DNA of 64,000 nucleotides from Escherichia phage humlepung. The DNA lies in sequence record MN850564.1, one strand, 5' to 3'. A model generated the notes under the pieces. The model worked only from the letters and a program-made list of their open reading frames with translations, searched no databases and was not told where the DNA came from. The number at the start of each line of letters is the position of its first letter. The first letter of the stretch is position 1. Below, one piece after another: positions 4,415-35,079 of this stretch. A program made the position numbers and the translations under genes.

Positions 4415-4700
4415 CGTTAAACTCTCTGACGAAGAAATAGTTGACTTTGTTATTACCTACCATAAGGTCAAAGCAGGTATTCTCAAAAGGTTTGTTGTAG
4501 GCATCATAAGAAGTATATGTATCAGCTACTTGTTTAGTATTGAGCTTTTTACTCGATGGGTTTAAGAGGCCACCATACAGTTTCTTGATAGCCTCTTCTA
4601 CAACAGACCAGATAATTTCGTCAGTAATTTCTTCGTACAGGTCAAGTTCACGCTCTAGTGAGAAGTCACAAATAGGGAAAACAACCTGTACTTTACTCAT
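4407..4700 (-). CDS. hypothetical protein (97 aa)
   Basis: ORF in operon. Confidence 0.45.
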   Translation of the reverse strand: MSKVQVVFPICDFSLERELDLYEEITDEIIWSVVEEAIKKLYGGLLNPSSKKLNTKQVADTYTSYDAYNKPFENTCFDLMVGNNKVNYFFVREFNDE

Positions 4701-5098
4701 TAACGAATCACCTGTGAGACTTGAATTGCTTCAGTTACTGACAAATCACCCACTTTCTCTTCTTTGATAAAAGTGAAGGTGAGTTCAACAGGCTCTTGCT
4801 CTTCTTGCTCAACTGGAACACCGTTAAGCTCATCAAAGATTGATTGAGTTGTCCAGTCTTCTCCACCATCTGGATAGTGGATTGCGTAAAGAGGGAACTC
4901 TAAATCAAACCAACCAAATACAGGACAACCGTCTTCATCATCTCGTACTCGATGAAGTGTGCTTCCAGACCCTGTAAACTGAAGGAATAAATCTCCGTTG
5001 CACTTGTATATTACTGCGTCGGCAAAACCAATGTCTTCTCGACCATCATGACCAAATGTGTCCACCTTTACTTGGATATCTCTAACATCTTTATTCAT
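4700..5098 (-). CDS. hypothetical protein (132 aa)
   Basis: ORF in operon. Confidence 0.45.
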   Translation of the reverse strand: MNKDVRDIQVKVDTFGHDGREDIGFADAVIYKCNGDLFLQFTGSGSTLHRVRDDEDGCPVFGWFDLEFPLYAIHYPDGGEDWTTQSIFDELNGVPVEQEEQEPVELTFTFIKEEKVGDLSVTEAIQVSQVIR

Positions 5099-7304: not shown

Positions 7305-7895
7305 TTAAGCTTTGGTCTTAAGTAGGTTCTTAAGTTTTTTAAGATTCATACTCTCATCAAACTTAAAACCAAATCCATTGACATAATCAATGAACTCGGA
7401 TTTCTTACTAAGTGACAATGCGTAACTCATATCAAAGTTCTTACTTGTTTCTGCGTCTGGACTAGAGTTCACATCAAATGAAATTTCTGTAGGCTCTTGC
7501 TTACTTTTTCTCATATTATCAACCAACAAACATGTATAGTTTGCTGGATAGAAGTTTACACTACCATCAACGTAGCTGTACTTATTATTATGGATAAGGT
7601 TGGAAAATACCTTAAGGAATGTTTCTGAGTCGTGGCAAACAAGTTTGAATTGGCTGCTCTCTCCAAGCGCAACTAATGAGTACGGACTTTCACTATCAAA
7701 GTCATAATTTAGATTCGATGCCGTCACTGTTACACGCATCAAGTTATTAGCAATAGTCTTCTGTTTAAAAGAATTTTGAACATAGTGAAGACCTCTATCA
7801 CACTGATTGACTAGCTCTTTAAGCAGGTCATTTGCATATGGCGAATTAATTGATACAGAGCCATCACTATTGTAATTAAAACTTACTGTTAACAT
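7305..7895 (-). CDS. hypothetical protein (196 aa)
   Basis: ORF. Confidence 0.5.
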   Translation of the reverse strand: MLTVSFNYNSDGSVSINSPYANDLLKELVNQCDRGLHYVQNSFKQKTIANNLMRVTVTASNLNYDFDSESPYSLVALGESSQFKLVCHDSETFLKVFSNLIHNNKYSYVDGSVNFYPANYTCLLVDNMRKSKQEPTEISFDVNSSPDAETSKNFDMSYALSLSKKSEFIDYVNGFGFKFDESMNLKKLKNLLKTKA

Positions 7896-8394: not shown

Positions 8395-8514
8395 ATAAAT
8401 ACTTAGAAGATAACTTAAAAGGTTCCTCTAAAAAGGCTATTTAAACAGATATCTTTCTGGATATCTATCTTTTATCTTAAAAGCCTTTTAAGAGGTCTTA
8501 TAAGAGGCATACCA

Positions 8515-8886
8515 ATGAAAAACAGAACAAACAAAGGCCAGTTTAAAAAAGGCCAGTCTGGAAACCCATCTGGAAGACCAAAAGGCTCTCGTAACAAAAG
8601 CTCACTCGTAAAAGCTCAACTGACCATTGATAATTCTGCTGAGTTTGCTGCAAAGTTGTTTGAAGCGATTGTTACAAGGGATGCTGCTAAGCTTGCAGAG
8701 TTCGGGTTAAACACAGATGACGTAACCATCAAGAGTATGATTGAGGTTGGTAAAACTATCTTTACTCACTCAGCAGGTGAGATGAAAGCACTTGCAGCAG
8801 ACACTAAGAAGACTCCTGATAATGGTGGTCAACAGCAGACAGATAACAAACCAACGTTCTCTGCTGTAGCGACTCTCAAAAAATAA
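8515..8886 (+). CDS. conserved phage protein with GQSGNPSGRPKG motif (DUF5681-like by recollection)
   Basis: ATG with AAGAGG RBS; N-terminal basic GNPxGRPKG motif. Confidence 0.55.
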   Translation: MKNRTNKGQFKKGQSGNPSGRPKGSRNKSSLVKAQLTIDNSAEFAAKLFEAIVTRDAAKLAEFGLNTDDVTIKSMIEVGKTIFTHSAGEMKALAADTKKTPDNGGQQQTDNKPTFSAVATLKK

Positions 8887-8898
8887 TTTTAAAAGGTG

Positions 8899-8934
8899 TT
8901 GACAGACTCTATAAAGTTGCTCTAAAGTCTGTCA
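8899..8934 (+). promoter_or_regulatory. Sigma70-like promoter (TTGACA-18-TAAAGT) embedded in 9-bp inverted repeat TGACAGACT/AGTCTGTCA
   Basis: Consensus -35, plausible -10, dyad symmetry spanning the promoter; upstream of 8968 gene. Confidence 0.45.
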
Positions 8935-8967
8935 CATCAAACAACAAATGAGAGAAGAGAGTAAAAT

Positions 8968-10383
8968 ATGAGCGAATTATTTAAACATGCGCACCTTCAT
9001 GCAGGTCGAACTGAAAATGGTGCTGTAAACCATACTTCATCAATGTCTGCTCTTGTAGACTTTTACAAAGCTGCTGGTTCGAGCCGTAGCAATGTAGAAA
9101 TCTTACCAGACCTGTTCTACAAAGCTTTGCGTGAGGATGTTGATGTTGCAGTTCGTATTTTACTGCATATGCGAGATGTACGAGAAGGTATGGGTGAGCG
9201 TAAAGCTTTCCGAACTGTTTTACTTAAAGCAATTGAAGATAAGATTTTAGAACCTACACAGGTTCTTCGCATTATGGATAAGATTGCAGAACTTGGTCGT
9301 TTTGATGACTTCAAAATCTTCGTAGGTACTCGTTTTGAGACAGATGCCTTCAAACATTTAGAAGCAGCATTACTAGACCCTGCAACAGCAGGTTTGGCGG
9401 CTAAGTGGTTACCACGAGTCAAACCACGTCATAAGCAGTTTGTAAAACGTTTCTGCAAGTTTGCCAACTTGAGTGAGAAAGAGTACCGCACACTGTTGTC
9501 TGCACTATCTGATACAGTTGAGCAAAAAATCTCTGCTAATGAGTTTGGTAAGATTGACTACAGTAAGATTCCTTCACTTGCTGCTGCACGTTACCAAAAA
9601 CTGTTTAACCGTAAAGATGGAGAGCGTTACAAAGCTTACATCGAGTCCTTATCAAAAGGTGAGACTAAGATTAACGCTGGTGCTGTTTACCCATACGATG
9701 TGATTAAATCTGTCAAGTATGGTAATGCAGATGTTGCTAATGAGCAGTGGAAAGCACTACCAAACTGGATGGCAGAAGGTGAAAACATCTTGTGTATGTC
9801 TGATGTATCAAGTTCAATGTCTTGGGTGAATTTTGGCTCCATTACTGCTCTGGATATTGGTGTATCACTTGCCTTGTATGTAGCAGAACGCAATACAGGT
9901 TGCTTTAAGAATGAGTTAATGGTTTATTCAACAAACCCTCACTTCATCGAACTGAGTGGTGATTTACGAAACCGTCATCGTCAGGTGATGCGACACGTTG
10001 AATATGGCTCAACTAACTTACAAGCAGCTTTTGACCGCATTCTTGAAACAGGTAAAAGAAACAACTTGACTCAGAAAGATATGCCAAGTAAGCTTATCAT
10101 CTTCTCCGATATGGAGTTCAATCAGGTTGATGGAGCTAACGGTCGTACAAACTTTGAAGCAATTCAGAGTAAGTACAAAAAAGCTGGATATGAGATGCCA
10201 CAACTGGTATTCTGGTACTTAGCAAACCGTAATGGTACTTGCGAAGTATCTGTTAAGGATAACGGTGTAGCAATGGTATCAGGGTTCTCTCCAGCCACTT
10301 TAAAAGCTCTGCTTGGTGGTGAGAAGTTTGACCCAATCAGTGTAATGCTCAAAGCAGTAATGATTGACCGTTATATCTGGTAA
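8968..10383 (+). CDS. Ro60/TROVE-like protein with C-terminal von Willebrand factor A domain (DUF2828-like N-terminus by recollection)
   Basis: MIDAS-like DVSSSMS...T...IIFSDMEFN resembling Ro60 vWA (DVSASM / FTDCETN); N-terminal TENGA...S..ALVDFY motif. Confidence 0.6.
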   Translation: MSELFKHAHLHAGRTENGAVNHTSSMSALVDFYKAAGSSRSNVEILPDLFYKALREDVDVAVRILLHMRDVREGMGERKAFRTVLLKAIEDKILEPTQVLRIMDKIAELGRFDDFKIFVGTRFETDAFKHLEAALLDPATAGLAAKWLPRVKPRHKQFVKRFCKFANLSEKEYRTLLSALSDTVEQKISANEFGKIDYSKIPSLAAARYQKLFNRKDGERYKAYIESLSKGETKINAGAVYPYDVIKSVKYGNADVANEQWKALPNWMAEGENILCMSDVSSSMSWVNFGSITALDIGVSLALYVAERNTGCFKNELMVYSTNPHFIELSGDLRNRHRQVMRHVEYGSTNLQAAFDRILETGKRNNLTQKDMPSKLIIFSDMEFNQVDGANGRTNFEAIQSKYKKAGYEMPQLVFWYLANRNGTCEVSVKDNGVAMVSGFSPATLKALLGGEKFDPISVMLKAVMIDRYIW

Positions 10384-10402
10384 AAAGTTTTAAAAAGGGT
10401 AT

Positions 10403-10431
10403 TGACAATGTGTTTAATACCCTTTAATATG
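10403..10431 (+). promoter_or_regulatory. Sigma70-like promoter TTGACA-17-TAATAT inside inverted repeat AAGGGTATT/AATACCCTT
   Basis: Exact -35 consensus, 17-nt spacer, TAATAT -10; upstream of tRNA array. Confidence 0.6.
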
Positions 10432-10548
10432 TTCTACATAGAAGCGAAATGAGAGCTTTTCTAAGATACTGAAAAATATTTTAAAAAAGTTCTTGACAAC
10501 CACTAAAAAATAATGTTAAAGTGGTTACATAGAGTTTGAAAAGTTTAT

Positions 10549-10625
10549 CTCTGTTTAGCTCAGCTTGGTAGAGCGTTCCGTTTGGGGCGGTAAGGCCGGA
10601 GGTTCAAGTCCTCCAACAGAGACCA
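10549..10625 (+). tRNA. tRNA-Pro (anticodon TGG)
   Basis: 7-bp acceptor ctctgtt/aacagag, D-arm gctc/gagc, T-loop TTCAAGT, encoded CCA. Confidence 0.75.
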
Positions 10626-10632
10626 AATTAAT

Positions 10633-10710
10633 GTTCCAGTAGACAAAATGGTAAAGTCACCACTCTTTCAAAGTGGATATTTGAGGGTTCAAATCCCTTC
10701 TGGAACGCCA
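10633..10710 (+). tRNA. tRNA-Glu (anticodon TTC)
   Basis: Acceptor gttccag/ctggaac, anticodon loop cTTTCaa, T-loop TTCAAAT, CCA. Confidence 0.7.
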
Positions 10711-10715
10711 GTTTT

Positions 10716-10791
10716 GACAGAAGACCAATTACAGCAAACTTAATCTTATTCATCTGAAGGTAAATCGGACAAAGAAGAGATTTGGTCTGGT
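10716..10791 (+). repeat. Structured repeat element copy a (5' GACAGAAGACCA ... 3' TGGTCTGGTC)
   Basis: Member of four-copy family with conserved CAGAAGACC...TACAGCAA...GGTCTGG and covarying flanks. Confidence 0.5.
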
Positions 10792-10801
10792 CATTAAGAA
10801 T

Positions 10802-10878
10802 TGCGGGTATAGAGAAAGGGCGTCTCACATGTCTCATTAGCATGGTATCGGCAGGTTCGACTCCTGCACCCGCCTCCA
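10802..10878 (+). tRNA. tRNA with CAT anticodon (Met or Ile2)
   Basis: Anticodon stem catgt/gcatg, loop cTCATta, T-loop TTCGACT, CCA; 1:72 mismatch. Confidence 0.6.
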
Positions 10879-10882
10879 ATTT

Positions 10883-10946
10883 TGCAGAAGACCGTATTCA
10901 GCAACAAAATACTTTTTGCGGATAAAAGAAAAAACACGGTCTGGCA
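10883..10946 (+). repeat. Structured repeat element copy b (5' TGCAGAAGACCGT ... 3' ACGGTCTGGCA)
   Basis: Same family; flank covariation tGC/GCa. Confidence 0.5.
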
Positions 10947-10955
10947 ATGTATTAA

Positions 10956-11029
10956 GGTTAGGAAGCACATAAGGTATGTGCGGTCGCCTGTTAAGCGAAT
11001 GGCACAGGGTTCGAATCCCTGACTAACCG
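10956..11029 (+). tRNA. tRNA-Asn (anticodon GTT)
   Basis: Anticodon loop ctGTTaa, T-arm caggg-TTCGAAT-ccctg, acceptor 6/7 paired; no encoded CCA. Confidence 0.65.
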
Positions 11030-11040
11030 CAAAATTAAAT

Positions 11041-11128
11041 GTGTCGTTATCCCGTAGATGGTAGCGGTGGGGACTGTAAATCCCTTGTCATTGAGACTCG
11101 GTAGGTTCGACTCCTACACGGCACACCA
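11041..11128 (+). tRNA. tRNA-Tyr (anticodon GTA), type II with long variable arm
   Basis: 85 nt, acceptor gtgtcgt/acggcac, loop ctGTAaa, T-loop TTCGACT, CCA. Confidence 0.7.
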
Positions 11129-11133
11129 ATAAA

Positions 11134-11210
11134 GGCTATGTAGTTTAACTGGAGAAAATACTCCCCTGTCACGGGAGATGATGTGAGTTCAAGTCTCATC
11201 GTAGCCGCCA
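11134..11210 (+). tRNA. tRNA-Asp (anticodon GTC)
   Basis: Acceptor ggctatg/cgtagcc, loop ctGTCac, T-loop TTCAAGT, CCA. Confidence 0.7.
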
Positions 11211-11237
11211 ATTTTGAGAGGGCTATTTAGCCCCTCC

Positions 11238-11272
11238 CTTAAAGAGTTCTTACGAGTATTCTTTAAGGGAGC
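11238..11272 (+). repeat. Hairpin CCCTTAAAG-(agTTCTTACGAGtatt)-CTTTAAGGG
   Basis: 9-bp perfect stem; loop motif TTCTTACGAG recurs at 14277-14286. Confidence 0.5.
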
Positions 11273-11348
11273 AGAAGACCAAATACAGCAAGAATGTATG
11301 AAATTTCAAGCCAATTTAATTTTGAAAATTTAAAACTTGGTCTGGCTC
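11269..11348 (+). repeat. Structured repeat element copy c (5' GAGCAGAAGACCAA ... 3' TTGGTCTGGCTC)
   Basis: Same family; flank covariation GAGC/GCTC. Confidence 0.5.
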
Positions 11349-11354
11349 AACAAA

Positions 11355-11493
11355 TTTACAGAAGGCCGTTTACAGCAAAACTTAAACAATCTATTTCTCC
11401 GGTAAAGAAAAGGCGAAGGTTCGATTCCTTCACTCGGCAGATGTCGAGTTGGTGTAATGGTAGCACTTAAGATGATAAACAACGGTCTGGTAA
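11355..11493 (+). ncRNA. Candidate structured ncRNA (element copy d): terminal stem TTACAGAAGGCCGTT/AACGGTCTGGTAA enclosing tRNA-like T-arm and D-arm hairpins
   Basis: Internal gaagg-TTCGATT-ccttc hairpin with T-loop consensus, acceptor-like hairpin, D-arm-like gtgtAATGGTAgcac; no complete tRNA fold. Confidence 0.3.
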
Positions 11494-11639
11494 TTACCTT
11501 TGTAGATAAGTTATTAAGCTTACTTGTGAGTATGCGACCACAAAGGGTGAATGGGTAAATTCTAGATTTAAACCCAAAAAGGCACATCGCTACAGACCTT
11601 AAGCAAGTCTGGGTAGCTTATCTACAAAGATAATTTAAT

Positions 11640-11715
11640 GGAAGTGTAGCAGAATGGTGATGCGGCAGACTTTTAATCTGACAGGCGATGGGTTCGAATC
11701 CCTCCACTTCTACCA
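11640..11715 (+). tRNA. tRNA-Lys (anticodon TTT)
   Basis: Acceptor ggaagtg/cacttct, loop cTTTTaa, T-loop TTCGAAT, CCA. Confidence 0.65.
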
Positions 11716-11719
11716 ATAT

Positions 11720-11796
11720 GGTTCAGTCGCAGATAAGGTAATGCAAGGGTCTCATAAGCCCTATGAATGTGGGTTCGATTCCCATCTGAACCTCCA
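11720..11796 (+). tRNA. tRNA with CAT anticodon (Met or Ile2), second copy
   Basis: Perfect acceptor ggttcag/ctgaacc, loop cTCATaa, T-arm gtggg-TTCGATT-cccat, CCA. Confidence 0.65.
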
Positions 11797-11797
11797 A

Positions 11798-11873
11798 GCT
11801 GGTATAGTTAAGAAGGTTATAACACTCCCCTGATAAGGGAACATCGGTGGTTCGATTCCACCTACCAGTACCA
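11798..11873 (+). tRNA. tRNA-Ile (anticodon GAT)
   Basis: Loop ctGATaa, T-arm ggtgg-TTCGATT-ccacc, CCA. Confidence 0.65.
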
Positions 11874-11888
11874 ATTTCAATAAAGTTG

Positions 11889-11917
11889 TTGACATTGAGA
11901 TGTGACTACTTTATAGT
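11889..11917 (+). promoter_or_regulatory. Sigma70-like promoter TTGACA-17-TATAGT inside the tRNA region
   Basis: Exact -35, 17-nt spacer, TATAGT -10. Confidence 0.55.
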
Positions 11918-12121
11918 AACCTTAGTTTTCGTTGCGTAGCGTCTATTTTGCAAATTTAAAATAAATGCAAACGACAATGTTTTTCTGGCAGTAGCTTGAT
12001 AGGCTAAACACCAGTGAGGTCTTCCAATCCCTCATCAAAGAATTTGGCGTACTCGCCCACGGTATGATTAATAAGGTGGGCATCTTTAAGGGCTTTCTAA
12101 GAGAGTCTTTAAAGATAATTA

Positions 12122-12203
12122 CGGGGCGTATCTCAGCGGTCTTCTAAACCGCCGTTAACCGAGTAAGTGGAGTATGCGGGTTCGAGTCCTGCCGCCTCGA
12201 CCA
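12122..12203 (+). tRNA. Atypical tRNA-like gene, anticodon stem-loop gcggt-cTTCTaa-accgc (TCT, Arg-like), no recognisable D-arm, 23-nt extra segment
   Basis: 7-bp acceptor cggggcg/cgcctcg, T-arm gcggg-TTCGAGT-cctgc, CCA; only 7 nt between acceptor and anticodon stem. Confidence 0.4.
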
Positions 12204-12346
12204 ATTTAGTTAGCAGATTACTTAGACGACCTTAGCGGGTCTTCCTGTAGGGAGGTGGTCTGTATCTCATGTTTTCCAGAACATGTAAATAATCTGAGAA
12301 GGGGCTTTACAGTGTTGAGATAATACGGTAAGCTTCGAATTATAGT

Positions 12347-12429
12347 ATGGGACGATATTAAGACTCTAAGGCATGAGCAACGGCTTCCAACACCGTTTCA
12401 AAGGGGTTCAACTCCTCCGTCCCATGCCA
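12347..12429 (+). tRNA. Atypical tRNA-like gene, anticodon loop compatible with CCA (Trp) closed by a C-A pair, or 9-nt loop
   Basis: Perfect acceptor atgggac/gtcccat plus CCA, T-loop TTCAACT; D-region irregular. Confidence 0.35.
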
Positions 12430-12442
12430 AAGTCTTATTAGG

Positions 12443-12530
12443 GGTAGGTAGCGGCTAATGGTAGCCAAACTGTCTTGAAAACAGTTGCCACTGTAGAGAT
12501 ACGGTGAGGGTTCGACTCCTTTACTTACCG
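12443..12530 (+). tRNA. tRNA-Ser (anticodon TGA), type II
   Basis: 88 nt, stem actgt/acagt with loop cTTGAaa, long variable arm, T-loop TTCGACT. Confidence 0.65.
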
Positions 12531-12787
12531 CCTAATAAGATTTAAAGCCAAGCTTCATTCGGATGTTGCTTTGGTATACCGCGTGTATTGTTGTACGCAC
12601 TGATAAAGCACCTAGTAGGTGTCACGGAGAAGAGATAATATCAAGCTCTCCAAAGGTTCTAGTCACCGGATTAAACAAGACTATGCAAAGACCTTTTTAG
12701 GTCTTTTTAGAGGGCTTCTAAGGTTATTACAGCTTGTTGTGGAACCTTGTTGCTTAGGTTCTTAGAAGTTCTCTAAAAAGATTTAAT

Positions 12788-12865
12788 GGGAGATTGACGG
12801 TAATTGGTAAACCTACCATCCTTAGAAGTTGGTGTTTGAGGGTTCGAATCCCTTGTCTCCTACCA
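12788..12865 (+). tRNA. tRNA with TAG anticodon (Leu-type anticodon but short, type-I length)
   Basis: Acceptor gggagat/gtctcct with G-U pairs, loop ctTAGaa, T-arm gaggg-TTCGAAT-ccctt, CCA. Confidence 0.5.
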
Positions 12866-12872
12866 AATTAAT

Positions 12873-12948
12873 GCAGGTGTAGCAAAATGGTTATGCGGCT
12901 GACTCTTAATCAGTAAGACGATGGGTTCAATTCCCTCCACCTGTACCA
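12873..12948 (+). tRNA. tRNA-Lys (anticodon CTT)
   Basis: Stem gctga/tcagt, loop ctCTTaa, T-loop TTCAATT, CCA. Confidence 0.55.
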
Positions 12949-12954
12949 GACATT

Positions 12955-13030
12955 GGGGTCATAGTTTATATGGTTAAAATTCGAGTTTTGCAAACTTGGG
13001 AACTGAGTTCAATTCTCAGTGACTCCACCA
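12955..13030 (+). tRNA. tRNA-Ala (anticodon TGC)
   Basis: G3:U70 wobble pair in acceptor (Ala identity element), loop ttTGCaa, T-arm ctgag-TTCAATT-ctcag, CCA. Confidence 0.75.
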
Positions 13031-13036
13031 ATTAGT

Positions 13037-13111
13037 GCATCCATAGTTTAAACGGGAAAATTACAGTCTTCCAAACTGAGGTTGAGGGTTCGATTCCCTC
13101 TGGATGCTCCA
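13037..13111 (+). tRNA. tRNA-Gly (anticodon TCC)
   Basis: Perfect acceptor gcatcca/tggatgc, loop ctTCCaa, T-arm gaggg-TTCGATT-ccctc, CCA. Confidence 0.7.
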
Positions 13112-13117
13112 AACAAT

Positions 13118-13194
13118 GCTGCTTTCGTATAATTGGCTATTACACATCCCTTGTAAGGATGGAAATGCAGGTTCGAGTCCTGTGAGCAGCACCA
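13118..13194 (+). tRNA. tRNA-Thr (anticodon TGT)
   Basis: Perfect anticodon stem catcc/ggatg, loop ctTGTaa, T-loop TTCGAGT, CCA. Confidence 0.75.
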
Positions 13195-13199
13195 ATTCA

Positions 13200-13283
13200 G
13201 AGGTCAAGTGAAAGACCGCTGGTGTCAACTGAAGACCGTAACAAATTCCACGGAGTTGAGTTAGCGGCACAACTTCAGACCTC
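13200..13283 (+). repeat. Stem element AGAGGTC...GACCTCT enclosing a GAAGACCGTAAC motif
   Basis: 7-bp terminal inverted repeat; internal CTGAAGACCGTAACAAA resembles the 5' arm of elements a-d. Confidence 0.4.
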
Positions 13284-13289
13284 TTTCAC

Positions 13290-13364
13290 ACTCGCTTAGT
13301 TTATATGGTAAAACACCACCCTTACAAGATGAAGAAAAAGGTTCAAGTCCTTTAGTGAGTACCA
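13290..13364 (+). tRNA. tRNA-Val (anticodon TAC), tentative isotype
   Basis: Acceptor actcgct/agtgagt, loop cTTACaa, perfect T-arm aaagg-TTCAAGT-ccttt, CCA; anticodon stem has mismatches. Confidence 0.55.
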
Positions 13365-13365
13365 T

Positions 13366-13443
13366 GTTCCAGTATCCCAATTGGCAGAGGATGCAAGCTC
13401 AAACCTTGTATTAGTGACGGTTCGAATCCGTCTTGGAACACCA
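13366..13443 (+). tRNA. tRNA with CAA anticodon (Leu-type anticodon, type-I length)
   Basis: Acceptor gttccag/ttggaac, stem gcaag/cttgt, loop ctCAAac, T-arm gacgg-TTCGAAT-ccgtc, CCA. Confidence 0.55.
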
Positions 13444-13462
13444 ATTTAAAGAGGCTATTTAG

Positions 13463-14020
13463 ATGAGATATTTGAAGTATGCTTCATGGATTTTCCTAGC
13501 TTTACTAGAGCCATTTGCAGCAACCCTAGCAGTCATCTTAGCACCTTTCGTAGTTCCATTCTACAGTGAGAAGAAAGGACACTTACCTTTCGGGTTCAGA
13601 TGGATGGAGACATATGACAACCCAATTGATGGTGATGAAGGTCACGTTAAAAGATGGGCTAATATTAGATGGATTGGTAAACTAGGTGTCTACATGCAAA
13701 GAGTTGGATGGCTCTGGAGAAACAAAGCTTATAACTTCTCTTACCATGTATTAGGAAGAGATGTAAAAGATGTTACTAAGTGGAAAGGTAATATCAACGT
13801 AAGTTCTAACCCTGAAGATAATCAGACTGGTTATCTCCTAATGTGGAACAGGAATGCTTGGGGATTATTCGCTTTTATCCCATCAATTAAAATCTTTGGT
13901 AAACAATTTTACTGGAGAATTTATATTGGATGGAAACTAAAAAGTGTTGTCCCAGAAGAAAGAGCATTCTCAAGGGAAAGAGTTATGTTGGCATTCTTTA
14001 TTCATCCACTGAGAAAGTAA
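13463..14020 (+). CDS. hypothetical membrane protein (185 aa, Trp-rich) encoded inside the tRNA array
   Basis: ATG with AAAGAGG RBS; N-terminal hydrophobic segment. Confidence 0.55.
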   Translation: MRYLKYASWIFLALLEPFAATLAVILAPFVVPFYSEKKGHLPFGFRWMETYDNPIDGDEGHVKRWANIRWIGKLGVYMQRVGWLWRNKAYNFSYHVLGRDVKDVTKWKGNINVSSNPEDNQTGYLLMWNRNAWGLFAFIPSIKIFGKQFYWRIYIGWKLKSVVPEERAFSRERVMLAFFIHPLRK

Positions 14021-14028
14021 AGATTTAA

Positions 14029-14104
14029 AGGGGATTAGTTTACAAGGTTAAAACCTCGGTCTTTGAAATCGAAGAAGTTGGTTCAATTCCAACATCCCCC
14101 GCCA
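14029..14104 (+). tRNA. tRNA-Gln (anticodon TTG)
   Basis: Loop ctTTGaa, perfect T-arm gttgg-TTCAATT-ccaac, CCA; 1:72 mismatch. Confidence 0.6.
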
Positions 14105-14106
14105 AT

Positions 14107-14185
14107 GCTCCATTACTCCAATTGGCAGAGAGGCCAGACTTAAAATCTGTGTTATGTATCGGTTCGAATCCGATATGGAGTACCA
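14107..14185 (+). tRNA. tRNA with TAA anticodon (Leu-type anticodon, type-I length)
   Basis: Loop cTTAAaa, T-arm atcgg-TTCGAAT-ccgat, CCA; D-arm resembles the CAA tRNA. Confidence 0.5.
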
Positions 14186-14190
14186 AATTT

Positions 14191-14266
14191 AGCGGTATAG
14201 CATAACTGGCAATGCAGCAGTCTCTGAAGCTGTCTTATTAAGGTTCAAATCCTTATGCCGCTGCCA
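14191..14266 (+). tRNA. tRNA-Gln (anticodon CTG), tentative
   Basis: Acceptor agcggta/tgccgct, D-stem gcat/atgc, loop ctCTGaa, T-arm taagg-TTCAAAT-cctta, CCA. Confidence 0.55.
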
Positions 14267-14267
14267 C

Positions 14268-14294
14268 TTCTAAGGATTCTTACGAGAGTCCTTA
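14268..14294 (+). repeat. Hairpin with loop motif TTCTTACGAG (second copy)
   Basis: aaggaTTCTTACGAGagtcctt; motif shared with 11250-11259. Confidence 0.45.
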
Positions 14295-14297
14295 AAT

Positions 14298-14373
14298 GTG
14301 GCCTTATCATAAATGGTAATGACCCATGCTGTGAACATGGTCTATACGGGTTCAAATCCCGTAGGTCACCCCA
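14298..14373 (+). tRNA. tRNA-His (anticodon GTG)
   Basis: Perfect anticodon stem ccatg/catgg, loop ctGTGaa, T-arm acggg-TTCAAAT-cccgt, CCA. Confidence 0.7.
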
Positions 14374-14379
14374 ATTTAT

Positions 14380-14455
14380 AGTCCAAGTAGCTTATATGGT
14401 TAAAGCGCGTGTCTGAAAAACATGAGAAGAGGGTTCAAATCCCACTGGACTACCA
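14380..14455 (+). tRNA. tRNA-Phe (anticodon GAA)
   Basis: D-stem gctt/aagc, loop ctGAAaa, T-loop TTCAAAT, CCA; acceptor register uncertain by 1 nt. Confidence 0.6.
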
Positions 14456-14471
14456 ATTTCAAAGGTGCTTA

Positions 14472-15206
14472 ATGAAAGAGATGACAGAACAAGGTAAGGA
14501 GATTTTTAATCTCTTAAAAACCGGTAAAGGGTTTTCTAACCCACTTATTACTGGTGCAGCAGTTCTCGGTGGAACCGTAGCTGCCTCTACATCACTTGTA
14601 AGCTCTATTAGCTCTGTAACAGACCCTACAATGAAGGAGAAGCTTGTTGCTGCTGGACTTACAACAGTCCTTCTAAACAGCTTTACAACAATCCTGACAA
14701 GCACTACAGCAACCACTAAGACCCTAACAGACTACGGTCAAAAGTCTATTGATGAGTTTTCATCACGTATGCAGGTAGCAAAGGGATATTCCAATGTTAT
14801 GGGTGCAGCAGGAGAACAAGTTGGTTGTACACCATTCAGTGGTATTATGGGTGTTGCTACAGAGTATGGTCAAAAAGCTATTGACATGATTAACAGTACA
14901 CTAGATAGTGTTAATGGTGTGTTAAGTGACTTACAAGACGCTATTGATGAGGGTCTTGATACTGTTTCTGATTTAGCTAATCAGGCTGTTAGTAAGATTA
15001 ATGAAGGTATTTCAAAGATTACAGCTTATGCAGATGAAGTTGTGCAGATGATTGAAGAAGAAGCTGCCCTTATTGCAGAGTACCTTAAAACGAATATCAA
15101 TGGGTTCTTAGCAGGTATCTTACCAGACTGGTTTGATGATGCTTGTAAAACTGGTGTAATTGATGCTATTGCAACACCAGAAATGAAGAACGCATTACAG
15201 AAATAA
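14472..15206 (+). CDS. hypothetical protein (244 aa, Ala/Thr/Ser-rich)
   Basis: ATG at 14472 with AAAGG RBS; the track start at 14409 would overlap tRNA-Phe. Confidence 0.5.
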   Translation: MKEMTEQGKEIFNLLKTGKGFSNPLITGAAVLGGTVAASTSLVSSISSVTDPTMKEKLVAAGLTTVLLNSFTTILTSTTATTKTLTDYGQKSIDEFSSRMQVAKGYSNVMGAAGEQVGCTPFSGIMGVATEYGQKAIDMINSTLDSVNGVLSDLQDAIDEGLDTVSDLANQAVSKINEGISKITAYADEVVQMIEEEAALIAEYLKTNINGFLAGILPDWFDDACKTGVIDAIATPEMKNALQK

Positions 15207-15207
15207 T

Positions 15208-15300
15208 GGAAGATTAACCCTAAAAGGTAAGGGAGCAGTTTGCTAAACTGCCAGTAGCTGAGAAATCGGTGTACCAGTTCAAGTCTGGTATCTTCCTCCA
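15208..15300 (+). tRNA. tRNA-Ser (anticodon GCT), type II
   Basis: Perfect acceptor ggaagat/atcttcc, stem gcagt/actgc, loop ttGCTaa, long variable arm, CCA. Confidence 0.7.
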
Positions 15301-15304
15301 ATTT

Positions 15305-15380
15305 GAATCCGTGACAGAAATGGCTATGTGCCTGTCTGCAAAACAGGTTTATAAGGGTTCGAGTCCCTTCGGATTCTCCA
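15305..15380 (+). tRNA. tRNA-Cys (anticodon GCA)
   Basis: Perfect acceptor gaatccg/cggattc, stem cctgt/acagg, loop ctGCAaa, T-arm aaggg-TTCGAGT-ccctt, CCA. Confidence 0.75.

Positions 15381-27081: not shown

Positions 27082-35079
<7,998 letters not shown>

Follow-up and report, generated by a model that had tools for sequence, protein, structure and literature searches.

A Ro60-like protein gene and linked Y-like RNA candidates in the tRNA array of Escherichia phage humlepung

Described Ro60 and Y RNA systems

Bacterial Ro60 (Rsr) with its partner RNAs YrlA and YrlB is described from the Salmonella rsr-yrlBA-rtcBA operon, from M. smegmatis and from cluster C mycobacteriophages (PMC4201824; Rfam RF02553), and the Y RNAs that flank Ro60 genes, at no more than 4 kb and on the same strand, have tRNA-like domains (PMC4201824). 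By its own text, the search of Chen et al. (2014), which lists 22 phages, was restricted to genomes with an annotated TROVE protein. In Thermus phage phiLo, Ro60 binds Yrl1 and Yrl2 and the host PNPase as an RNP (PMC12135203; PDB 9l5y), and Listeria phage CKA15 has abundant unannotated transcripts less than 2 kb upstream of an Rsr-like gene (PMC12282133). The PhageMaP preprint described Bas63 gp130 as structurally similar to Ro60 and as counteracting the Ppl defence; its authors suggested Y RNA partners for it and guessed that these might be found among the annotated tRNA genes (PMC11482910).

In this study, we analysed a 64,000-nt stretch (the window) of Escherichia phage humlepung (MN850564.1), an E. 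coli phage of the Felix O1 type. The ortholog of gp130 stands there in the same place, before the same tRNA array, as in Bas63 (Escherichia phage JohannRWettstein, MZ501086; gp130/bas63_0130, 471 aa, 97% identical). The Ro60 likeness and the anti-Ppl role of this ortholog are already known; the RNAs that we propose as partners appear undescribed so far, and the literature on DUF2828, on 'Felix O1' with Ro60 and on YrlA from 2019 onward yielded no description of them. They also differ from those guessed at in the preprint, which showed no RNA: the candidates are four unannotated elements in the spacers, not annotated tRNAs.

A diverged Ro60-like protein upstream of the tRNA array

The protein gene and its surroundings are laid out as follows.

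8515..8886, + strand: DUF5681 gene (123 aa; PHROG 4114), conserved upstream neighbour of the Ro-like gene
8899..8928, + strand: sigma-70-like promoter (TTGACA, 18 nt, TAAAGT), 40 nt upstream of the Ro-like gene; a consensus match only, at 10/12 positions
8968..10383, + strand: gene for the Ro60-like protein, ortholog of Bas63 gp130; 471-aa ORF with an N-terminal helical-repeat domain, predicted to form a ring (DUF2828), and a C-terminal vWA domain with a MIDAS motif (DUF7788)
10402..10522, + strand: two tandem TTGACA-type promoter-like sites (10402-10430 and 10493-10522; 10/12 positions each in the scan), heading the tRNA/Y-like RNA unit
10549..11210, + strand: six tRNA genes (Pro, Glu, Met, Asn, Tyr, Asp; ARAGORN, Rfam), whose spacers hold two of the elements, E1 and E2

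The initial annotation had placed a 471-aa product at 8968-10383 with tRNAs within 170 bp of it; both points stand, the first tRNA (Pro, 10549) lying 165 nt past the stop codon. The array comprises 24 tRNAs called by ARAGORN and one more by Rfam, and the sequence flanking the tandem promoter-like sites is a direct repeat (family D19). The DUF5681 gene is also found directly upstream of the Ro-like gene at four other loci (L081-L084); whether it is part of the module is uncertain.

By sequence the protein belongs to DUF2828 (4e-29) and DUF7788 (2e-43), both above the Pfam gathering score, and it matches the full-length profile of PHROG 850, 'RNA-binding protein', over residues 1-471 (4.9e-184). 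This family is large, with 2482 homologues at E<=1e-5 and 709 phage records. The MIDAS region, likened at the outset to that of Ro60, is strictly conserved: D279-V-S281-S-S283-M, T349 and S380-D381-M do not vary across 34 homologues, which reach down to 42% identity, and hhalign pairs DVSSSM with the DVSGSM of Ro from mycobacteriophage Bxz1. The whole alignment of the family to Bxz1 gp220 reaches 64% probability over 88 columns only. VWA_2 is matched by 21 of the 34 homologues, and six match Pfam vWA_Ro60, weakly. Of the profile matches sought, those to DUF2828 and DUF7788 were obtained, whereas TROVE (PF05731) matched neither the protein nor any of the 34 homologues at E<=1, in a search whose positive control, Bxz1 gp220, scored 9e-50. 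NCBIfam, PDB phmmer and PDB profile searches likewise returned no Ro60 for the protein. Its family is too diverged for TROVE sequence models to detect and, since sequence searches gave none, its kinship with Ro60 is revealed by structure comparison only. The AlphaFold model (pLDDT 88, pTM 0.88) has nine Ro60 structures as its top Foldseek matches (TM 0.42-0.66); at E<1e-6 and over the full length Ro60 is the sole match, the others spanning the vWA domain only. The N-terminal domain is thus predicted to be Ro-like, in line with the initial proposal, and the modelled protein has the Ro60 architecture, in which a vWA domain closes a ring of helical repeats.

Four covarying elements and their relatives

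Within the first tRNA transcription unit, 330-1110 nt downstream of the Ro-like gene and on the + strand, lie four non-tRNA elements, E1-E4. R1-R3 below are covariance models built from the elements and used to seek relatives.

10713..10795, + strand: E1, short Y-like RNA; outer stem UGAC/GUCA, AGA/G internal loop, AGACCAA/UUGGUCU, UUACAGCAA loop, variable apical hairpin
10880..10949, + strand: E2, short Y-like RNA; outer stem UUGC/GCAA, inner AGACCGU/ACGGUCU; R1 43 bits, R2 2e-7, R3 1e-6
11267..11350, + strand: E3, short Y-like RNA; outer stem GAGC/GCUC, inner AGACCAA/UUGGUCU; R2 3.4e-4, R3 2.1e-4
11354..11495, + strand: E4, YrlA-type Y-like RNA; the basal module of E1-E3 around V, T, acceptor and D arms; R3 100 bits, E 4e-18

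All four share one fold. The motif CAGAAGRCCNNNTNCAGCAA occurs four times in the window, always on the + strand, against 0.00 expected from shuffles, and each copy has its 3' partner nnGGTCTGG. In the basal module common to them, an outer stem of 4 bp is followed by the A-N-A/G internal loop, by a second stem in which one G-C pair never varies, and by U-N-CAGCAA as a single strand; the outer stem covaries among the elements (UGAC/GUCA, UUGC/GCAA, GAGC/GCUC, UUAC/GUAA), so that the four covarying stem copies first noticed among the tRNAs are borne out. E1 (repeat families D9 and D15; R2 3e-6, R3 1.2e-5) is kept in the same slot in Bas63 and throughout the Felixounavirus group (L001-L015), with an apical sequence of two alternative types. 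Both E1 and E2 start 2 nt past the CCA of the upstream tRNA and end 6 nt short of the next, while E3 and E4 stand in tandem. In E4 the arms succeed one another as V hairpin, T arm (GAAGG-UUCGAUU-CCUUC), closed 7-bp acceptor-like hairpin (ACUCGGC-AGAU-GUCGAGU) and D arm (GUGU-AAUGGUA-GCAC), a layout given unaided by the minimum-free-energy fold; in relatives, changes in the acceptor hairpin are compensated throughout (ACACGUU/GGCGUGU, ACCCUUC/GAAGGGU). The tRNA-like hairpins originally placed at 11355-11493 are therefore present as T arm, acceptor-like hairpin and D arm, with the bounds shifted to 11354-11495. E4 is not a canonical tRNA cloverleaf: its order is T, acceptor, D, without an anticodon arm. 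ARAGORN called none of E1-E4 a tRNA, and the Rfam tRNA model gave E4 a partial match of 22 bits (threshold 29), over the V and T arms only.

The resemblance to bacterial Rsr-Yrl loci, a ring and vWA protein with several ncRNA genes adjoining on its strand, extends to the RNAs. E4 is like YrlA in its permuted V-T-acceptor hairpin-D domain, borne by a long stem whose internal loop is rich in purines, the full YrlA topology, with T arm and closed acceptor-like stem-loop, being present in its fold; E1-E3 are like YrlB, shorter and without a tRNA domain. In many relatives the acceptor loop starts with NCCA, which recalls the CCA-ended YrlA of M. smegmatis, and E1-E4 and their relatives keep within 4 kb of the gene, on its strand, as YrlA does. 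Unlike bacterial Rsr, the protein is DUF2828/DUF7788 by sequence, not TROVE, and the basal module combines the A-N-A/G loop with U-N-CAGCAA where YrlA has GNCGAAN0-1G (PMC4201824); the window carries [A/G]CAGAAG[A/G]CC, whose GAAG resembles the YrlA motif without being the same. In the Rfam covariance searches, suggested earlier for 10700-11500, neither gathering-score scans nor E-value scans (over 8 kb, 821 nt and 161 nt) found Y_RNA or YrlA at the window, E4 matching neither Y_RNA nor RF02553 in 161 nt even at E<=10; two relatives matched the full RF02553 model significantly, below its 69-bit gathering threshold (L085 Y3, 40.9 bits; L018, 38.2 bits). This threshold is harsh for phage versions, since even the YrlA site accepted for mycobacteriophage Bxz1 reaches no more than 32.5 bits. 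Our family model in turn matches Bxz1 YrlA in the tRNA-like core only (model positions 34-105). The weak Rfam matches at the window (miRNA, plastid-UTR, tmRNA) were set aside as look-alikes of tRNA arms or hairpins.

E1-E4 belong to a real, covarying RNA family. Counted on model-fitted alignments, which favour the modelled structure, 94% of cells in 21 sequences are paired, against 35-46% with partners slid, and 32 of 37 pairs have changed on both sides; 45 sequences give 91% against 36-44%, with a covariation score of 0.465 against at most 0.088. Covariation backs the E4 topology in 9, 21 and 45 sequences alike. The single-stranded CAGCAA is invariant in 43-44 of 45 members, and the internal loop has the consensus A-N-A-A-G, with an invariant G.

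This family is genomically tied to the DUF2828/DUF7788 proteins in many unrelated phages. R3 made 58 matches in 0.9 Mb around DUF2828 genes and 38 further ones in named phages of Klebsiella, Mycobacterium, Enterococcus, Bacillus, Listeria, Staphylococcus and Campylobacter (in Mycobacterium phage Rumpelstiltskin, 96 nt after gp54); all 96 lie on the strand of the DUF2828 gene. The hosts of phages with such neighbours are Proteobacteria, Firmicutes, Actinobacteria and Campylobacter. Non-tRNA matches of R2 fall between -1.6 and +2.8 kb from the gene, and one locus has five elements in tandem straight after it. The exact pattern AGAAGRCC...GGYCTG occurs only in the Felixounavirus group and at L081 (protein 63% identical), so covariance models were needed for the distant loci. 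R1-R3 matches over tandem tRNAs, made of the T arm of one and the D arm of the next (e.g. window 14023-14157), were dropped, ARAGORN calling these tRNAs.

A proposed phage Ro-Y RNA-type module and its alternatives

Overall, we suggest, with a probability of about 0.7, that the locus is a phage Ro-Y RNA-type module, in which a Ro60-like ring protein and the Y-like RNAs E1-E4 probably act on host RNA-handling enzymes. The Ro plus Y-RNA-like architecture first proposed thus largely holds, supported by the predicted Ro60 fold, the covarying RNA family, the genomic linkage and the YrlA-type E4. Strong promoters just downstream of the Ro-like gene would transcribe the first tRNA block with E1-E4 inside, and RNase P and tRNA 3'-end processing should release E1 and E2 as RNAs of about 70-85 nt, as suggested by the way in which both leave only 2-6 nt of their spacers free at either end. 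The basal module may be the docking site of the ring, analogous to the bulged helix of Y RNAs, and through it the protein would bind all four. The distal parts would vary as in Y RNAs, with small variable hairpins in E1-E3 and a tRNA mimic without anticodon arm in E4. During infection, the RNP so formed probably diverts or blocks enzymes with which the host handles RNA, such as exoribonucleases and tRNA-binding or tRNA-damaging factors, and would contribute to counter-defence. The phiLo Ro60-PNPase RNP is a precedent for this mechanism; there, Ro60 is a TROVE-domain protein and the Yrls carry a CGAA motif and lie upstream of the gene, whereas in humlepung the RNAs sit within a tRNA operon and include a full tRNA mimic.

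The main competing explanation, less probable by far though a serious one, holds that the RNAs are real but independent of the Ro-like protein, acting either as regulatory sRNAs or as tRNA mimics that decoy or soak up host nucleases directed at tRNA or enzymes of tRNA processing; their adjacency would reflect a shared 'RNA region', and the protein would counter Ppl alone through its vWA/MIDAS surface. In fact, Bas63 gp130 alone, whether plasmid-expressed or placed in the T7 genome, lets T7 grow again on a ppl host (PMC11482910), and at least the anti-Ppl activity thus needs none of the phage's own Y-like RNAs. A consensus scan also points to the tRNA promoters, not the gene's own, as making the RNAs. 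One relative (L008) has lost E4 through a T-loop deletion that fused it to tRNA-Lys, and no RNA is detected at many DUF2828 loci: 44 of the 70 outside the Felixounavirus group, KVP40-like Vibrio phages included, have no match within +/-6 kb. Yet the linkage persists at loci free of tRNAs (L018, L029, L068, L069, L079, L080) and spans phages of four bacterial phyla, often at 15-300 nt from the gene and always on its strand. Strict conservation, moreover, lies in the basal module and not in the tRNA mimic, which is what a shared protein partner predicts. The tRNA cluster of phage T5 (NC_005859) is like that of humlepung in holding small non-tRNA RNAs (RNA1, RNA2, RNAI, RNAIII and others), some tRNA-like and released by tRNA processing, to which the species 1 and 2 RNAs of T4 are similar; used as a negative control, the T5 array gave nothing credible with R3 (at most 21.6 bits, nearly all on tandem tRNAs), its stable RNAs were accordingly rejected as family members, and the 44-kb T5 stretch examined contains no Ro-like gene.

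Very little weight attaches to the idea that the elements are passive by-products of tRNA-array evolution, that is, decayed or recombined tRNA fragments and spacer hairpins serving at most as processing signals. They do occupy tRNA spacers, T-loop-mediated recombination does occur, as the fusion in L008 illustrates, and tandem tRNAs can mimic the T-then-D order, as the false positives attest; but every helix is preserved by compensatory changes, the single-stranded CAGCAA stays nearly invariant, and some members lie far from any tRNA. The acceptor-like stem of E4 is closed by a loop, which makes E4 one continuous RNA and not two tRNA halves. Weakest of all is the reading as small proteins, which are annotated in such regions in several GenBank records (bas63_0137 and bas63_0138 on the minus strand, spurious CDSs over two of the four Bas63 elements; CDS0150 of Staphylococcus phage S-CoN_Ph8): ORFs are present here too (11330-11587, -, 85 aa; 11294-11470, +, 58 aa), but we reject this reading because close relatives differ by indels that are not multiples of three (E3 87-91 nt, E4 138-146 nt), and conservation tracks base pairing rather than reading frame.

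Animals, about 5% of bacteria and a few phages are known to have Ro60-Y RNA particles. A much larger phage protein family, unrecognisable by sequence, is now tied to a matching small-RNA family, which offers a concrete and testable function for DUF2828 and DUF7788, and the RNAs give a handle on how the ortholog, an experimentally validated Ppl counter, works. Felixounaviruses are in common use for therapy and for typing. With a covariance model, annotation could be put right in many phage records, where the RNAs now figure as hypothetical mini-proteins or aberrant tRNAs, and the arrangement shows how tRNA operons may serve as delivery vehicles for non-tRNA regulatory RNAs. More tentatively, and at somewhat less than even odds, the DUF2828/DUF7788 proteins and the 'CAGCAA' RNAs could form a second, phage-borne class of Ro-Y RNP, spread widely among phages whose hosts are Gram-negative, Gram-positive or actinobacterial or belong to Campylobacter, with RNAs cut from tRNA operons by the host tRNA-processing machinery and with swappable distal modules, an anticodon-less tRNA mimic among them, that would aim the ring at RNA- or nuclease-based host immunity such as Ppl. 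If so, the RNA family would be a new, unnamed class of ncRNA, at present misannotated as tiny ORFs or odd tRNAs.

Predicted Ro60 architecture of the phage protein

Region 8400-12000 shares 99% identity with Escherichia phage vB_Eco_Tribble and 95-99% with about 170 Felix O1-like phages; by this similarity the window comes from a Felixounavirus genome. The Ro-like ORF stands as first called, and the tRNAs, claimed to follow it within 170 bp, begin 165 nt downstream.

Features of the locus in the window
8968-10383, plus strand: Ro-like gene, ORF of 471 aa
10402 and 10493: two predicted TTGACA promoters, at the upstream end of the first tRNA/E1-E4 block
10549-15380: 24 tRNAs (ARAGORN)
10713-10795, plus strand: structured element E1
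10880-10949, plus strand: structured element E2
11267-11350, plus strand: structured element E3
11354-11495, plus strand: structured element E4
12122-12200: additional tRNA missed by ARAGORN (Rfam, 31.7 bits), whose equivalent in the phage Bas63 record is tRNA-Arg(AGA)

Upstream of the Ro-like gene, in the window (8515-8886) and likewise in the compared loci L081-L084, lies a conserved neighbour, a gene for a 123-aa DUF5681 protein with an N-terminal GNPxGRPKG motif.

The initial annotation had described the product as a Ro60/TROVE-like protein, a description that holds for the predicted fold, N-terminal part included, and fails for TROVE at the sequence level. The protein matches Pfam DUF2828 (4e-29) and DUF7788 (2e-43) and gives no match to Pfam TROVE (PF05731); PHROG 850, "RNA-binding protein", covers it end to end (5e-184), and sequence and profile searches against the PDB, as well as NCBIfam, returned no matches. 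TROVE is likewise matched by none of 34 homologues, VWA_2 by 21 of them and vWA_Ro60, weakly, by six. The MIDAS region of the vWA domain is intact, with D279, S281, S283, T349 and D381 invariant in the homologue alignment. An AlphaFold2 model built from that alignment (pLDDT 88.1, pTM 0.88) was compared with the PDB by Foldseek: the best nine matches are all full-length Ro60 (E 2e-8 to 1e-6, TM up to 0.66), and the matches below them, at E>3e-3, are all isolated vWA domains, so that the modelled protein as a whole, its N-terminal helical part included, has a Ro60 architecture. Profile-profile comparison with Bxz1 gp220, a genuine TROVE phage Ro (TROVE match 9e-50), gave an alignment limited to 88 columns at the MIDAS junction, with a probability of 64%. 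We conclude that the Ro-like protein belongs to a very diverged sister family of TROVE and, by sequence, is no TROVE member. Some members of the family already carry the GenBank label "Ro-like RNA binding protein".

Structured RNAs within the tRNA array

Repeat analysis identified a 25-nt family at 10714, 10881, 11268 and 11355, with a matching 3' family ending in GGTCTGG; the motif CAGAAGRCCNNNTNCAGCAA has four copies in 64 kb, all on the plus strand, with 0.00 expected from shuffles. E1-E4 fold on a common base, consisting of a 4-bp outer stem, an internal loop with 5' AGA facing 3' G, an inner stem (AGRCCnn/nnGGUCU) and a single-stranded loop, (U/A)U(A/U)CAGCAA. The four copies of a covarying stem element noted among the tRNAs are real: the outer stem differs in each and pairs in all (UGAC/GUCA, UUGC/GCAA, GAGC/GCUC, UUAC/GUAA). 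On this base E1-E3 bear small apical hairpins, and among close relatives the apical sequence of E1 occurs in two wholly different versions while the base is constant. One element was said to enclose tRNA-like hairpins, and the unconstrained minimum-free-energy fold of E4 displays them: a V hairpin, a T arm (GAAGG-UUCGAUU-CCUUC), a 7-bp acceptor-like stem with an AGAU closing loop, U-G, a D arm (GUGU-AAUGGUA-GCAC) and a closing stem of 4-5 bp. E1 and E2 each start 2 nt past the upstream tRNA's CCA and stop 6 nt short of the following tRNA; since they fit so closely between tRNAs, predicted promoters head the block and no plus-strand terminator was found within it, a direct inference is that tRNA processing would release the elements.

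Other structures occur in the array. Between E4 and tRNA-Lys, the arms of a 22-nt inverted repeat (11492-11635, 91% complementary) enclose a branched fold of some 100 nt (MFE -44 kcal/mol), which may be another ncRNA. At about 12337-12428 lies a tRNA-like sequence uncalled by ARAGORN and Rfam, with acceptor stem UGGGACG/CGUCCCA, T loop GGUUCAACUCC and 3' end UGCCA, which could be an aberrant tRNA or another mimic. A long hairpin just before tRNA-Leu (12693-12792; 26-nt arms, 85% complementary) accounts for an Rfam miRNA hit, rejected as spurious.

Covariation and linkage across phages

E1-E4 are found at the same positions of the array in 14 IMG/VR relatives and in Bas63. The acceptor hairpin of E4 reads ACUCGGC/GUCGAGU in the window, ACACGUU/GGCGUGU in two relatives (L010, L011) and ACCCUUC/GAAGGGU in two more (L012, L013), with three pairs changed on both sides; pairing holds in 96% of cells, compared with 42-50% after sliding. 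In another relative (L008, about 8450-8540), the 5' half of E4 runs, inside the T loop, into the 3' half of tRNA-Lys, a deletion that arose when two T loops recombined and that shows E4 to be open to loss.

Covariance models were built iteratively, R1 from the E4 orthologs, R2 from 21 hits and R3 from 45 hits. On the hit alignments, which are model-fitted, covariation is strong: 94% paired against 35-46% slid, with double changes in 32 of 37 pairs (21 hits), and, for the 45 hits, 91% against 36-44%, the covariation score being 0.465 against no more than 0.088. Over the 45 members, G14-C262 is paired in 43, U21 is present in 44, C23-A-G-C-A-A28 in 38-44 and unpaired G264 in 40.

R3 was run on DUF2828 loci with flanks of 5-6 kb on either side, plus one T5 control. 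A scan of both strands over 0.9 Mb yielded 58 hits at E<=0.05, with the minus strand empty; of the 70 loci outside the Felixounavirus group, 26 had hits. In the R2 round, hits clear of tRNAs were confined to the interval from -1.6 to +2.8 kb around the gene, some in loci without any tRNA. Eight named phages yielded 38 further R3 hits, all on the gene's strand.

R3 results in individual phages
Klebsiella FBKp34: 91 bits
Mycobacteriophage Rumpelstiltskin: 63 bits, 96 nt downstream of "Ro-like" gp54
Enterococcus VRE9_3: 58 bits
Bacillus FADO: several hits, up to 54 bits
Listeria LP-048 (L087): 30 bits, 68 nt upstream of the gene; R3 matches at 4611-4683 and 4771-4891
Staphylococcus and Campylobacter phages: weak hits, typical short forms abutting the gene
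Vibrio ValKK3: no hit

As a negative control, R3 was run on 44 kb of phage T5 containing 25 tRNAs and eight stable RNAs, where it reached at most 21.6 bits; of six hits, five coincided with tandem tRNAs and one (17.4 bits) fell inside RNAX. As the model built here does not detect them, the eight stable RNAs annotated in the T5 tRNA region (L096 12284-15949 and 22848-23566), two of them described as tRNA-like, form a separate set of array-embedded RNAs.

In a 143-kb phage contig (L085; Ro-like protein only 51% identical), the gene and a promoter are followed immediately by a tandem set of five RNAs of the E1-E4 family, of which three have the full tRNA-like domain. About 4 kb downstream of its Ro-like gene lies an IS605 OrfB/Cas12f-like TnpB gene (11393-12652), and in FBKp34 an IS200/IS605 accessory gene takes the equivalent position. 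GenBank annotates some Y-like RNAs as tiny hypothetical CDSs, namely bas63_0137 and 0138 of Bas63 (L086 12749-13023) and CDS0150 of S-CoN_Ph8 (L091 6471-6560), and that of FBKp34 (L090 7003-7116) as an over-long 114-nt "tRNA-Asp". Two loci with proteins 53-56% identical (L084 7607-7681, L082 about 7600-7720) have an odd tRNA-like unit directly 3' of the Ro-like gene, called "tRNA-???" by ARAGORN, with a 2-nt anticodon and enclosed by a long stem; it does not belong to the CAGCAA family. In Listeria phage LP-048 (L087 1-11455), a tRNA array lies on one side of the Ro-like gene and genes for an RtcB-like ligase, an RNA ligase, an HD phosphohydrolase and a tRNA amidotransferase on the other, an RNA-repair neighbourhood that recalls the bacterial rsr-yrlBA-rtcBA operon.

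Relation to YrlA and possible function

The arms of E4 follow the permuted V, T, AS, D order of YrlA, a bacterial Y RNA (PMC4201824). Along its full length the Rfam YrlA model (RF02553) matches two CAGCAA-family members at 40.9 and 38.2 bits (E about 1e-5), both below the gathering score of 69, and it gives no hit at all to E4 of the window. Bxz1, whose Ro is of the TROVE type, has an Rfam YrlA match of 32.5 bits at 29979-30055. As R3 matches this site with the tRNA-like core only (model positions 34-105), the two RNA groups share a tRNA-mimic design but differ in the basal module, which presumably binds the protein; their divergence parallels that of the DUF2828 and TROVE protein families.

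We thus demonstrate a Ro60 fold in the modelled protein, a conserved structured RNA family and a tight same-strand linkage of both, which confirm the observation and support its interpretation as a Ro plus Y-RNA-like module. The Ro-Y RNA concept is already known and foreshadowed for this very gene: Bas63 gp130, 97% identical to the window protein, counters the Ppl defence system and is structurally similar to Ro60, and its authors suggested that some annotated tRNA genes could be Y RNAs (PhageMaP preprint, PMC11482910). In Listeria phage CKA15, an Rsr-like gene has, within 2 kb on its upstream side, highly abundant transcripts that lack annotation; these were proposed to be Y RNAs, and the Rsr-like protein was found in virions (PMC12282133). 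Chen et al. confined their search to genomes annotated with a TROVE protein, so DUF2828 phages lay outside it. Our literature search found no description of the CAGCAA family; the RNA partners, and how widely they occur among phages, appear to be new.

How might such a module act? E1-E4 would be cut out of the tRNA precursor and the ring protein would dock on their conserved basal module; the variable distal modules, including the anticodon-less tRNA mimic, might then recruit or block host RNA enzymes, by analogy with Y RNAs and PNPase. The anti-Ppl phenotype is known for the ortholog gp130 (PMC11482910). Since gp130 is active in T7 without E1-E4 (PMC11482910), the RNAs are perhaps not obligatory, and may modulate the protein or extend its action.
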